DNA from: a virus
Reading direction: 5' to 3' (one strand)
Length of the DNA stretch: 25,764 nucleotides
UHGV virus genome: UHGV-0116607
Position 1 is the stretch's first letter. Every line of letters starts with the position of its first letter. The notes beneath the pieces are model-generated. The model searched no databases, was not told where the DNA came from, and was given only the letters and a program-made list of their open reading frames with translations. Of the stretch, positions 22,643-25,764 are shown piece after piece. A program made the position numbers and the translations under genes.

Positions 22643-23593
22643 ATGGCACTCACACTTTTAGCTGCCAACAATGCGCAGACTGTGCTGGCGGCAGGAATTA
22701 GCGCATCAGCAACTTCTTTGACTGTTAACTCAGGAACCGGATCACTGTTTCCTGCGCCATCAGACGGAGTAAGTTTTTTTAAGTTAACCCTGATTGATGC
22801 GGCAACCGGGCAACTCACCGAAATCATGCATGTAACCGCGCGCACTGGTGACACCATGACGATCGAACGCGGCCAGGAGGGAACGACAGCCCGCGCATGG
22901 TCAGCGAATGATATCGCAGCAAACATGATGACCGCCGGCACTCTTAACTACATCCTGGACAATTTTCAACCCTTAGATGCAACCCTAACGGCATTGGCTG
23001 GGCTGGCAACCGGTGCAAATAAACTCCCGTATTTCACTGGAACTGATACAGCTGCGCAGACTGATTTAACTTCTGTTGGCCGTGACATTATTGGGAAAAA
23101 TACTATTGCTGACATTCTCACATACCTTGGTTTGGGAGAAGGTTCGGCATTACCCGTTGGTGTGCCTGTCCCGTGGCCTTCCGCCACTCCGCCAACAGGC
23201 TGGCTGAAATGCAACGGGGCTGCTTTTTCGGCTGAAGAATACCCGGAACTGGCAAAGGCTTACCCGACAAATAAATTGCCTGATTTACGCGGTGAATTTA
23301 TTCGTGGCTGGGATGACGGACGTGGTGTGGATGCCGGGCGACAATTATTATCTTCACAGGGGGATGCAATAAGAAATATTGAGGGATTCGCAGATGGCGG
23401 GATCGGCATGTCTTTTGATGCAATCAGAGGGGCTTTTTACGATGCAGGAACACGATCAGCGACAATGGCGAATAACACAACTGCTATAGGCAAAACCGAT
23501 GACCTTGGATTCGACGCCTCTCGTGTCGTGCCAACAGCTAATGAAAACCGTCCACGTAACATCGCCTTTAATTATATTGTGAGGGCTGCATAA
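22643..23593 (+). CDS. Tail fibre protein (constant N-terminal part + invertible C-terminal variable part with tail-collar-like domain)
   Basis: 316 aa; GGAGGA ribosome-binding site; C-terminal region has the tail-fibre collar signature (…GWLKCNGAAFSAEEYPELAKAYP…LPDLRGEFIRGWDDGRG…); a hix/gix-like recombination site lies within the coding sequence at 23115-23140. Confidence 0.8.
   Translation: MALTLLAANNAQTVLAAGISASATSLTVNSGTGSLFPAPSDGVSFFKLTLIDAATGQLTEIMHVTARTGDTMTIERGQEGTTARAWSANDIAANMMTAGTLNYILDNFQPLDATLTALAGLATGANKLPYFTGTDTAAQTDLTSVGRDIIGKNTIADILTYLGLGEGSALPVGVPVPWPSATPPTGWLKCNGAAFSAEEYPELAKAYPTNKLPDLRGEFIRGWDDGRGVDAGRQLLSSQGDAIRNIEGFADGGIGMSFDAIRGAFYDAGTRSATMANNTTAIGKTDDLGFDASRVVPTANENRPRNIAFNYIVRAA
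23115..23140. repeat. Left recombination site (hix/gix-like 26-bp site) inside the tail fibre gene
   Basis: TTCTCACATACC-TT-GGTTTGGGAGAA: two 12-bp half-sites around a 2-bp core; 15 bp (23127-23141) is a perfect inverted copy of 24944-24958. Confidence 0.6.
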
Positions 23594-24186
23594 TGAAACC
23601 TGTTTTTGATGAAAATGGGCTGGCTACAGTACCGGGTAATATGCGTTGTTTTTATTATGAGGCAGTTACGTATGAATATACTGGCTGGTCTGATGAATAT
23701 ATTAATACTGGCGTAAGTATGCCCGCCTGTTCCACTGGTATTGACCCGGGCGAATACATTCCGGGAAGAGTGGCAGTATTTACGGGTAAGGGATGGAGCC
23801 ATGAAGAAGACCATCGCAATGAGACTGTTTACTCAACAGAAAATGGCGTAGCTGTTACAGTGGATTATATCGGTGCCATCAAAGACGGTTATGTCACGCT
23901 TTCACCGTTAACGCCATACGATAAATGGGATGGTGAGAAATGGGTGACGGATACCGAGGCACAGCATAGCGCCGCACTAGACGCGGCAGAAGTAAAGCGC
24001 CAGTCGCTGATTGATGCTGCAATGGCTTCCATCAGTCTGATTCAGCTGAAATTACGGGCCGGGCGGAAGCTGACGCAGGCAGAAACCACCCGACTTAACG
24101 CTGTGCTGGATTACATTGACGCGGTGGAGGCAACAGATACCAGCCCCGCGCCTGATGTCATCTGGCCTGAACTGCCGGAGGCGTAG
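23593..24186 (+). CDS. Tail fibre assembly protein (U-like)
   Basis: 197 aa; TAATG overlap with the fibre gene stop; C-terminus …LDYIDAVEATDTSPAPDVIWPELPEA matches the conserved tail-fibre-assembly C-terminal signature. Confidence 0.75.
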   Translation: MKPVFDENGLATVPGNMRCFYYEAVTYEYTGWSDEYINTGVSMPACSTGIDPGEYIPGRVAVFTGKGWSHEEDHRNETVYSTENGVAVTVDYIGAIKDGYVTLSPLTPYDKWDGEKWVTDTEAQHSAALDAAEVKRQSLIDAAMASISLIQLKLRAGRKLTQAETTRLNAVLDYIDAVEATDTSPAPDVIWPELPEA

Positions 24187-24597
24187 GCCATTCAATATCT
24201 GGCGCACTGGAAGTATCGACCAGTTCCAGTGCGCCAGATAATCCAGCCACAAATTATATTGCACCAGTTCCTCACCTTTCAGGCGACCAATCGCCGCTTT
24301 ACCAGGCCATTGCTTACTGTTTATGTATTCGTTGACCTGATTAATCAATTGCTGCTTTTTCAGTTCGGCTGCGGCAATTTGTTCCTCATGAGTTGGCGGT
24401 GGAATATCAATCCATGCAGGCATTCCGTCGATGACACCTCTGTATTTTCCTTCTGGTGCTTCCTTCATAAATTCGGCGGCAACAGTGTCGTCAATTTCGA
24501 TTCCATCATCGGGCCATTCGCCGGATTCCTGATAAGCGATTTTAAGCTCCACAGGGAAAAACGCATTTTTATCGGCACTGAAAATATATTTCTGCAT
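24052..24597 (-). CDS. Alternative tail fibre assembly protein (U'-like); apparent frameshift near the 3' end (possibly a pseudogene or homopolymer sequencing error)
   Basis: ATG at 24597; as read the frame runs to 24052, but the conserved C-terminal signature LELVDTSSAPDIEWPTPP is encoded in a different frame (encoded at about + 24180-24225, stop near 24160); a single missing G/C at about 24234-24235 would restore a product of about 145 aa. Confidence 0.5.
   Translation of the reverse strand: MQKYIFSADKNAFFPVELKIAYQESGEWPDDGIEIDDTVAAEFMKEAPEGKYRGVIDGMPAWIDIPPPTHEEQIAAAELKKQQLINQVNEYINSKQWPGKAAIGRLKGEELVQYNLWLDYLAHWNWSILPVRQILNGLRLRQFRPDDIRRGAGICCLHRVNVIQHSVKSGGFCLRQLPPGP
24196..24240. repeat. 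17-bp perfect inverted repeat with 11-bp spacer at the convergence point of the two tail fibre assembly genes
   Basis: TATCTGGCGCACTGGAA (24196-24212) … TTCCAGTGCGCCAGATA (24224-24240); lies just downstream of the U-like stop and inside the 3' coding region of the minus-strand U'-like gene. Confidence 0.7.
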
Positions 24598-24599
24598 TT

Positions 24600-24958
24600 C
24601 TACCGTCCTATCGAAATATAACTGAATCTGTATTGCTGTGAGATATCACTGGTTGCCACACGCCACGCTGAATTACTGATATGTTCAAAATTTACAGACA
24701 AAACCTGCGGGGCAGGACTCGACGGGTCTGACTGAACGGCATCAGACATAACACTGACTGAAACCATCGGCTGATTAGGGAATGGTATAGGGAAGTGTCC
24801 ACTGATAAAGCGGGTCGTGTTTCCTGAAAAAGTGCCAAACTGAACAATATATCCACCTGGTAGCCTGAACCATCCCGAACCAGAAGCGAATGCTCCCATA
24901 TCCGGTATCTGATTATCTCCTGTGCCCACATCCCTTTTCGCCGCTTCTCCCAAACCAA
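24600..24958 (-). CDS. Promoterless alternative tail fibre C-terminal cassette (S'v-like), expressed only after inversion
   Basis: Minus-strand ORF in frame with the fibre constant region across the recombination site (…GLGE|AAKRDVGTGDNQIPDMGAFASGSGWFRLPGG…); stop 2 nt before the U'-like ATG; no start codon or ribosome-binding site of its own. Confidence 0.6.
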
Positions 24959-24970
24959 CCTTTTTTATAA
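24945..24970. repeat. Right recombination site (hix/gix-like 26-bp site) upstream of the invertase gene
   Basis: TTCTCCCAAACC-AA-CCTTTTTTATAA; from memory closely resembles the hixL-type consensus; inverted relative to the left site. Confidence 0.6.
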
Positions 24971-25000
24971 CCATCAAAAATCTGGTGATGCTTCGCCGTT

Positions 25001-25023
25001 TCTCCTGTTTTCATAACAGGAGA
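25001..25023 (+). promoter_or_regulatory. Hairpin / palindrome covering the invertase ribosome-binding site
   Basis: TCTCCTGTT (25001-25009), loop TTCAT, AACAGGAGA (25015-25023); the 3' arm contains the Shine-Dalgarno AGGAGA, 7 nt upstream of the ATG. Confidence 0.4.
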
Positions 25024-25029
25024 AATCCC

Positions 25030-25578
25030 ATGATTTACGGTTATGCCCGAGTATCAACAAACCACCAGGACACTGAATTGCAACTAACGGCGCTCAAGTC
25101 AGCGGGTTGTGAGAAAATTTTTGAAGAGCATGCCAGCGGGAGGAAATCGAATCGGCCGGTTCTAAAACGGCTGATCGCCACTATGCAGCCGGGGGATGAA
25201 CTGGTGGTCTGGAAGCTGGACAGGATAGGCCGCAACGTTCTGCATGCGCTGTTGATGTTCCAGCAGTTACAGGAAAAGGGTATCAACTTCCGCAGTATTA
25301 CCGATGGCGTGGATCTCAAAACAGCCAGCGGCCGCTATAACTTTCGTAACATCCTTTCCGCAGCACAATATGAATCTGATCTTAATAGCGAACGTACCTT
25401 AGCAGGGCTGGCCGTAGCCAGGGCAAAAGGGCGAGTTGGTGGTCGCAGGCCTAAGTTCACGGATGAGCAATGGCGGGAAATGGGGGAGCGGATGGCAACC
25501 GGTGAATCACGACAAAGCGTATCAAAAACGTATGGAGTAGGGCTCTCAACTCTGTATAAAAAGTTTCCAGCTAGCTGA
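25030..25578 (+). CDS. Site-specific DNA invertase, serine recombinase (Hin/Gin/Pin/Cin family)
   Basis: 182 aa; N-terminus MIYGYARVSTNHQD with the catalytic Ser in the resolvase/invertase motif; C-terminal helix-turn-helix (…SVSKTYGVGLSTLYKKF); adjacent to the invertible segment. Confidence 0.9.
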   Translation: MIYGYARVSTNHQDTELQLTALKSAGCEKIFEEHASGRKSNRPVLKRLIATMQPGDELVVWKLDRIGRNVLHALLMFQQLQEKGINFRSITDGVDLKTASGRYNFRNILSAAQYESDLNSERTLAGLAVARAKGRVGGRRPKFTDEQWREMGERMATGESRQSVSKTYGVGLSTLYKKFPAS

Positions 25579-25599
25579 TAACGGGAAAGAAACAGAGAA

Positions 25600-25640
25600 G
25601 GGCACAAATATTGTGTACTTTAATGTGCCCTTTAATTTAT
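25600..25640 (+). terminator. Putative terminator after the invertase gene
   Basis: GGGCACA-(17 nt)-TGTGCCC followed by TTTAATTTATT; long loop, so moderate confidence. Confidence 0.35.
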
Positions 25641-25764
25641 TGATTGGTGGTTGAATTGTTCGTAACTTTTTGATTTAAGTGCAAATTTCTAATAAATTAG
25701 AACACTTTCTTAAAAGACTTTCTCTTCCAGAACTTCTCTAACCTGTGTTATTATTAACACAGAT

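Follow-up and report, generated by a model that had tools for sequence, protein, structure and literature searches.

A Clade-Specific Leader Hairpin over the Shine-Dalgarno Sequence of a Phage Pin-Type DNA Invertase and Its Probable Role as a Translational Brake

The invertase gene and its leader

The window analysed here, a 25,764-nucleotide (nt) stretch of DNA from the viral genome UHGV-0116607, ends in a classical phage tail-fibre inversion module, a myovirus-type tail module with a complete S/U-U′/S′ segment. A DNA invertase gene is located just outside the right crossover site of this segment, as is gin in Mu, and its 5′ leader includes a hairpin that covers the Shine-Dalgarno (SD) sequence, which is the subject of this report. 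The product of the gene matches the Gin structure 3uj3 over residues 1-181 (E = 1.4e-56), includes the Pfam domains Resolvase (3.6e-39, residues 2-135) and HTH_7 (1.5e-9, residues 138-181), and has its active-site serine, Ser9, within the sequence YARVST. It is 99.5-100% identical to PinL of phi80 and to the mEp237 invertase. At the DNA level the region 24947-25714 shares 99.6% identity with HK225, a lambdoid phage, and 94-97% with phi80 and mEp237. This PinL-type clade was found in 88 of 5,426 complete Escherichia coli genomes and in at least 89 viral contigs, in addition to phi80, HK225 and mEp237. The gene and the elements of its leader are the following.

25030-25578, + strand: DNA invertase gene, 182 amino acids, Gin/Pin-type small serine recombinase, assigned by structure and Pfam matches
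24984-24997, + strand: small hairpin HP1, GGUGA-UGCU-UCGCC, 5 base pairs (bp), -5.2 kcal/mol, followed by a U-rich stretch
24998-25026, + strand: main hairpin HP2, with the 5′ arm (anti-SD) at 24998-25009, the loop UUCAU at 25010-25014 and the 3′ arm at 25015-25026
25018-25023, + strand: SD sequence AGGAGA, wholly within the 3′ arm of HP2

An inverted repeat over the SD sequence had been noted in the original prediction as an element of 9 bp. The repeat is present and is longer than that: it is perfect over 11 bp (24999-25009 / 25015-25025) around a 5-nt loop, and a G24998-U25026 pair lengthens HP2 to 12 bp. The SD AGGAGA was correctly placed in the 3′ arm ahead of the start codon. The ATG occupies nucleotides 25030-25032 and HP2 ends 3 nt 5′ of it; counted from AGGAGA the spacer measures 6 nt, and counted from the shorter reading AGGAG it measures 7 nt. 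Pairing of AGGAGA with the 3′ end of 16S rRNA is predicted to contribute -7.4 kcal/mol.

HP2 alone has a predicted free energy of -15.4 kcal/mol. The same model keeps it folded at 70 °C, with -6.4 kcal/mol, and an RNA thermometer was rejected on this ground. The fold of the 89-nt leader has a z score of -5.25, and none of 200 dinucleotide shuffles folds as well. Apart from HP2, the 25.7 kb of the window contain no perfect inverted repeat with arms of 11 bp or more and a loop of 3-10 nt, against an expectation of 0.125 per shuffled window. For the leader types of the window, phi80 and locus L003 the SD is paired with a probability, P(SD paired), of 1.00, which none of 200 shuffles of the upstream sequence attained. 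The small hairpin HP1 is ambiguous, as it could be an RNA stem or the -10 hexamer and discriminator of a candidate promoter described below. Its stem is kept while its loops vary and includes U-G and G-U wobbles that pair on the + strand only, and it has a mismatch in 3 of 13 leaders. A search of Rfam found no known RNA family at the hairpin; a sub-threshold chance match to TMV_UPD-PK3 lies elsewhere (25665-25706, 20.4 bits against a gathering threshold of 34).

Conservation and distribution of the hairpin

About 200 loci encoding relatives of the invertase (designated by L numbers) were gathered from genomes and viral contigs, with the comparison phages Mu, P7, Fels-2, P88 and four others added. 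Every invertase at least 79% identical to that of the window has the same leader. An exact copy of the palindrome was found in 89 viral contigs. Among the 80 that were listed and examined, a script placed it directly before the start of an invertase of the MIYGYARVS type in 79, and the remaining contig, L162, has the full leader ending in ATG.

Conservation was assessed on an alignment of 13 distinct leaders in which codon third positions, spacers and the HP1 loop served as near-neutral columns. At these columns the identity to the window is 48-74% in 11 of the 12 other leaders and 98% in L024. All 20 columns of the inner 10 bp of HP2 are invariant, whereas only 5 of the 54 near-neutral columns are (Fisher p ~9e-14). 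At codon positions 1 and 2 the invariant columns number 24/30 and 25/30, respectively, a lower share than the 20/20 of the stem. The outermost perfect pair, T24999-A25025, is U-A in most leaders, including that of the window, and C-G in the phi80 type, a compensatory change. L199 has a change of A25025 to G that leaves a U-G pair at this position, and L200 has a single C-A mismatch in the stem in an otherwise identical sequence. The G24998-U25026 pair, like the wobbles of HP1, can form in + strand RNA only. Considered together, the sequence comparisons indicate that the stem is maintained by selection, and that the leader hairpin is real, strongly selected and clade-specific.

The frame of the invertase is open from a GTG at 24922 and includes an in-frame ATG at 24988, and an N-terminal extension or a coupled leader peptide was considered for this reason. 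Both were ruled out: the ATG at 24988 is absent in other leader types, and a 1-nt insertion or deletion between the hairpin and the start codon shifts the frame in 9 of 11 leader types. As a consequence, the region 5′ of the ATG is not a conserved coding sequence.

The specificity of the element was examined in 17 independent leader families, P(SD paired) being compared in each with shuffles that changed the upstream sequence and left the SD in place; Fels-2 was outside this test. The value is 0.86 for L042 (p = 0.015), 0.74 for L104 (p = 0.07) and 0.59-0.79 for e14-type Pin (p = 0.15-0.33), while in Mu Gin, P7 Cin, P88 and the remaining families of this test the pairing of the SD is no different from that of the shuffles. 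A covariance model of HP1 and HP2 found the element within the clade of the window only, plus L199. An SD-occluding hairpin common to the whole family was rejected: the e14-type, L013 and L067 leaders had looked suggestive by eye, but apart from the values for L042 and L104 the shuffles give significance only for the window/phi80 clade (0/200). The SD of L203, a distant invertase, is covered by a different, unrelated stem (CUCUCU/AGAGAG).

Predicted effect on translation

Initiation was estimated with a thermodynamic model that sums the SD-16S pairing, the start codon, a spacing penalty and the cost of unfolding the mRNA, and that gives rough numbers, with rates in arbitrary units. The total free energy is +12.8 kcal/mol for the invertase leader, corresponding to a rate of 7.9, and +11.2 kcal/mol for the phi80 type. 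For the 19 other + strand genes of the window the median is +0.5 kcal/mol (range -5.0 to +5.5) with rates of ~200-24,000, and 12 other invertase leaders range from -0.8 to +6.4 kcal/mol. When the 5′ arm is replaced, the model gives -0.9 kcal/mol and a rate of 3752, which is ~470-fold higher. The invertase is a clear outlier, with initiation predicted to be a few hundred-fold (~250-fold) below that of the 19 other genes. The stability of the fold, the invariance of the stem with its compensatory and wobble variants, and the position of the leader as an outlier of the initiation model all support the earlier claim that the hairpin sequesters the SD.

Crossover sites and promoter candidates

The crossover sites and the promoter candidates are given together.

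23115-23140, no strand assigned: left crossover site, inside the S gene, TTCTCACATACC TT GGTTTGGGAGAA, identified as an inverted repeat and by the half-site matrix
24945-24970, no strand assigned: right crossover site, TTCTCCCAAACC AA CCTTTTTTATAA, identified in the same way
24966-24971, + strand: TATAAC, the -10-like hexamer noted earlier, a weak candidate with a matrix score of 1.2
24964-24992, + strand: alternative promoter candidate with -35 TTTATA (24964-24969), a 17-bp spacer and -10 GATGCT (24987-24992)

A recombination site upstream of the invertase had been predicted, and it is found at 24945-24970 with its partner at 23115-23140. The perfect repeat common to the two sites is 15 bp, with an AA/TT core, and it matches the inversion repeat of the e14 P segment, TTGGTTTGGGAGAAGG, quoted in PMC12529663. 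A half-site weight matrix was built from 54 distinct real half-sites, in which the most conserved positions are AAA at 8-10 (87-96%) and C/G at 11-12. By this matrix the half-sites of the two crossover sites rank 2nd, 3rd and 19th of 51,506 positions, ranks 2 and 3 being the halves of the left site, and the three distinct half-site sequences of the two sites score 15.7, 11.5 and 8.8. The inner half of the right site is canonical. Its outer half (24959-24970) is degenerate, with CC instead of GG beside the AA core, and because of this CC the site is not a proper dyad at that half. The degenerate CC is kept in all loci of the PinL clade, whereas e14-type loci have CG and Mu has GG. Mosaic joints lie inside the right site: the similarity to HK225 starts at 24947, and that to P2-like Klebsiella, E. 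coli and Salmonella phages, which covers the S′v module, ends at 24963. Many different tail-fibre ends join the same invertase leader at this site.

The proposal that the invertase promoter has its -10 hexamer in TTTTTTATAAC, the end of the right site, is not supported. The last position of TATAAC, highly conserved in -10 hexamers, is a C, the best -35 hexamer available to it is TTCTCC at a spacing of 15 bp, and its weight-matrix score of 1.2 is poor, 3.7% of the window positions scoring as high or higher. It is absent from the output of a promoter scan, which found no + strand promoter in 24500-25764. The best + strand candidate in 24880-25032 is TTTATA-17-GATGCT, whose score of 5.0 places it among the top 0.6% of window positions. 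Of 10 other leader variants, 7 also have a good score at this position, with GATATT or GACATT as the -10 hexamer, and the candidate was not found in the L004, L014 and L031 types. The predicted start is at ~24998-25001, at the foot of HP2. Its -35 hexamer TTTATA lies within the outer half of the right crossover site, and an overlap of site and promoter is therefore possible through this hexamer, as judged by consensus matching. If the candidate is real, invertase bound at the site could occlude the -35 hexamer, and HP1 would be promoter DNA and not an RNA stem. The resolvase of Tn3/gamma-delta represses its own promoter, which lies within its recombination site (res). The original prediction followed the same logic, for which the window offers a consensus-level -35 candidate in the outer half-site; that such a promoter would allow autorepression as at res is conjecture.

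For all scoring candidates, with the -10 hexamer at 24966-24971 or at 24987-24992, the predicted start lies no further downstream than the 5′ arm of HP2. The anti-SD arm would therefore stay in the transcript, and the same would be true of read-through transcripts from S-U. Full-text literature searches returned nothing relevant on invertase promoters, autoregulation or an SD hairpin, and no study of the element itself. On the - strand, a promoter-like match at 25057-25030 (TTGATA-16-AATCAT, 9/12) would drive an antisense RNA across the hairpin; the start codon region, read on the complementary strand, supplies its -10 hexamer, and the codons of the catalytic RVST motif supply its -35 hexamer. 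The number of promoter-like matches in the region, this one included, is no higher than expected by chance. An extended -10-like motif, TGGCAT(C/G)AT, located ~35-45 nt 5′ of the start, is common to the e14-type loci (L044-L096), Mu (L097), Fels-2 (L099) and P88 (L100), and is absent from the clade of the window.

Mechanism and alternative explanations

The hairpin is most likely, with a probability that we put at roughly 0.6, a constitutive translational brake on the Pin-type invertase. In the invertase mRNA, the 5′ leader would fold at nucleotides 24998-25026 into a stem-loop with the whole SD in its 3′ arm. Because this stem is very stable, the 30S subunit would rarely load, and invertase translation would be constitutive and very low whatever the promoter. 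Read-through from the tail-fibre late operon S-U, which is upstream of the invertase and has the same direction, would also be throttled by the hairpin. The low level of invertase would in turn make inversion of the 23128-24957 tail-fibre segment infrequent, so that the rate of switching would be set by the throttled translation of transcripts that include the 5′ arm.

Several points weigh against this reading. Covariation in the stem is weak: 10 of the 12 pairs never vary, a single event changes both sides of a pair, and the observed doubly changed cells were matched by 8 of 500 shuffles. Owing to the invariance of these 10 pairs, the comparative data alone cannot tell an RNA stem from a DNA palindrome. 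Both arms are fully invariant, even at 3-4 pairs outside the SD, and pairing alone would need somewhat less than this. The presence of the 5′ arm in the native mRNA is a step that we infer, and the initiation estimates come from our own simplified version of a published thermodynamic model. Finally, a stem of this stability is predicted to permit almost no translation at equilibrium, yet the invertase must be made; homologous segments are found in both orientations beside the same invertase type in related prophage loci.

The invariance of both arms at 20 of 20 columns suggests a sequence-specific constraint, which would be expected if the palindrome of 25-27 bp were a double-stranded DNA operator for a dimeric protein that blocks transcription over the ribosome-binding site, be it the invertase, repressing its own gene from a pseudo-crossover site, or a host factor. 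The outer hexamers TTCTCC/GGAGAA are indeed the outer hexamer of the real half-site TTCTCCCAAACC, placed 13 bp apart as compared to 14, and the palindrome always travels with the invertase gene, even in lambdoid phages that have no invertible segment. However, the palindrome lacks AAA at positions 8-10 and C/G at 11-12, its centre is 1 bp and not 2 bp, and the matrix gives its two halves scores of -4.3 and -6.7 (ranks 5153 and 9132 of 51,506) as opposed to 8.8-15.7 for real half-sites. A pseudo-crossover site was rejected on the basis of these scores and of the 1-bp centre, and the idea, raised in the original prediction, of an operator at this place finds no support as far as the invertase itself is concerned. 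A LexA box was rejected as well, because the LexA-like CTGT/ACAG arms are spaced by N7, one base short of N8, and no other candidate binding protein for the palindrome was found. The exact LexA-box spacing, CTGT-N8-ACAG, is present in the single variant L199 (4155-4196, - strand), a divergent member of the clade with a 6-nt loop, the U-G outer pair and no HP1. In addition, the observed variants are U-G wobbles, which are mismatched in DNA, and there is no known upstream promoter to block. We consider an operator unlikely. The invariance of the arms could alternatively reflect sequence-specific recognition of the RNA by a trans-acting factor, in which case the hairpin would be a regulated lock and not a fixed brake. 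The factor could be a small RNA that pairs with the 5′ arm, an RNA-binding protein, or the invertase acting on its own leader; the DsrA small RNA, for instance, opens the rpoS leader. According to a 2025 report, T2 infection increases the expression of pinQ/pinR, and PinQ acts in trans to invert the e14 segment (PMC12529663), a result that makes conditional control of such invertases conceivable. If the hairpin were a lock, the invertase would be switched on conditionally, for instance upon phage attack or induction, leading to tail-fibre switching, and the orphan copies in phi80-type phages could drive inversion of segments of other prophages in trans. We think such a lock quite improbable.

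Two other explanations were considered. In one of them the native transcript starts inside or after the 5′ arm and escapes the hairpin, which would silence late-operon read-through only. The invertase is directly downstream of the S-U genes in the same direction, so strong late read-through is to be expected, and an extended -10-like sequence, TGTTTTCAT (25006-25014), with a -35 hexamer GTGATG, scores 3.0 (top 1.8%). IS10 fold-back inhibition is a precedent for a leader hairpin that acts on read-through transcripts. IS200 is another precedent (PMC4513863). Against such an insulating role, a promoter at TGTTTTCAT would start at ~25021, inside the SD, producing an mRNA without an SD, and most leader types (loop TTCAC or TTTAC) have C in place of the last T of this sequence; for these reasons a promoter inside the hairpin was rejected. 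There is also no -10-like hexamer at 24998-25008, where a start between the arms would need one, and better-scoring candidates lie upstream. There is a slim chance that insulation is all that the hairpin provides. The other explanation has the stem-loops act on the RNA or on transcription, HP1 with its U-rich tail as a weak terminator or attenuator and HP2 as a 5′-terminal stabiliser of the mRNA. Hairpins at the 5′ terminus are known to stabilise RNA against 5′-end-dependent decay, and a start at ~24998-25001 would leave HP2 in that position. A terminator scan does flag 24983-24998 followed by TTTCTCCTGT, and the left end of IS200 pairs a terminator with an SD stem-loop (PMC4513863). HP1, however, has just 5 bp and -5.2 kcal/mol and is mismatched in 3 of 13 leaders. 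HP2 has no U run after it on either strand, which also eliminates an intrinsic terminator at HP2. Stabilisation, moreover, would leave the placement of the stem over the SD unexplained and the occlusion in place. We regard a purely RNA-level role as very unlikely, although stabilising and SD-occluding roles are not mutually exclusive.

Comparison with known systems

The same element is present in the pinL leader of phi80, and the GenBank record (JX871397) names it IR3 and assigns it no function. The two 11-bp arms of this repeat, 23919-23929 / 23935-23945, are found 5 nt before pinL. In phi80, HK225 and mEp237 the invertase is an orphan beside attP without an invertible segment, in contrast to the complete segment of the window. 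The phi80 locus (L001, 2367-3153) retains only a pseudogene fragment of the tail-collar gene, and the HK225 locus (L002, 2584-3132) has no adjacent invertible segment; leader and hairpin are intact in both. These orphan invertases recall the trans-acting orphans PinQ/PinR (PMC12529663).

The nearest functional parallel to the proposed brake, closer than the fold-back inhibition of IS10, is found in IS200, in which the SD of the transposase gene is sequestered by a leader stem-loop and mutations in the stem increase expression 50-fold and restore 30S binding (PMC4513863). The two cases share the logic of a strong SD hidden in a leader stem, which holds the amount of a DNA-rearranging enzyme very low; for the invertase this outcome is predicted from sequence. 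The two systems differ in recombinase family, sequence and stem architecture, which are unrelated. IS200 is, in addition, controlled by an antisense RNA and Hfq, whereas the invertase leader has just the chance-level promoter-like match on the - strand.

Gin (Mu), Cin (P1/P7), Pin (e14) and Hin belong to the same enzyme family as the invertase of the window and share with it 26-bp sites with a 2-bp core and tail-fibre switching. The leaders of Gin, Cin and e14 Pin differ from that of the window: P(SD paired) is 0.4-0.8, not beyond shuffles, and the covariance model finds nothing in them. Mu (L097, 3593), P88 (L100, 401) and Fels-2 (L099, 392) have a GTG start, and the SD of P7 cin (L098, 601) is weak, at -2.4 kcal/mol; these phages seem to limit invertase expression by these other routes. 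P7 also differs in arrangement, since cin is on the other side and cixL overlaps the 3′ end of the gene. P7 has an annotated Fis-dependent recombinational enhancer spanning +19 to +86 of cin; at 25048-25115 in the window, within the 5′-proximal part of the invertase gene, 3 of 30 codon third positions are invariant, and their conservation is not unusual.

Sequestration of the SD is a standard mechanism, and the element was already marked in the phi80 record. If the hairpin throttles translation, it would explain rare switching in a widespread invertase clade, and the brake would also protect against strong late transcription running into the gene. A single recombinase family would then have reached low expression by different routes: the hairpin here, GTG in the Mu type and a weak SD in P1/P7. 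The prediction that the native PinL-type leader is nearly untranslatable matters for users of PinL-type invertases and for measurements of inversion by the phi80 prophages of laboratory strains.

The tail-fibre inversion module

Within the invertible segment, alternative tail-fibre C-termini and assembly genes face in opposite directions. The genes of the module other than that of the invertase are listed below.

22643-23593, + strand: S tail-fibre gene, with a tail-collar (Collar) domain
23593-24186, + strand: U tail-fibre assembly gene, Caudo_TAP
24597-24052, - strand: U′, Caudo_TAP
24977-24600, - strand: S′v, Gp53-like_C (Gp53-like C-terminus)

In the middle of the invertible segment, directly after the stop codon of U, there is a 17-bp perfect inverted repeat with an 11-nt spacer (24196-24240). 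The U′ open reading frame (24052-24597, - strand) runs through this repeat and shares 135 nt with the 3′ end of U. The match of U′ to Caudo_TAP ends at residue 122 (profile positions 2-111 of 131), and the C-terminus of U′ looks replaced or truncated; an inverted duplication may be the cause of this alteration. On the 3′ side of the invertase, nucleotides 25579-25764 include an attP arm of the phi80/HK225 type. The similarity to phi80/HK225, and to E. coli prophages located at yciI, ends at 25714, which is the annotated attP core, and the last 50 bases of the window are probably host DNA or the other att arm.

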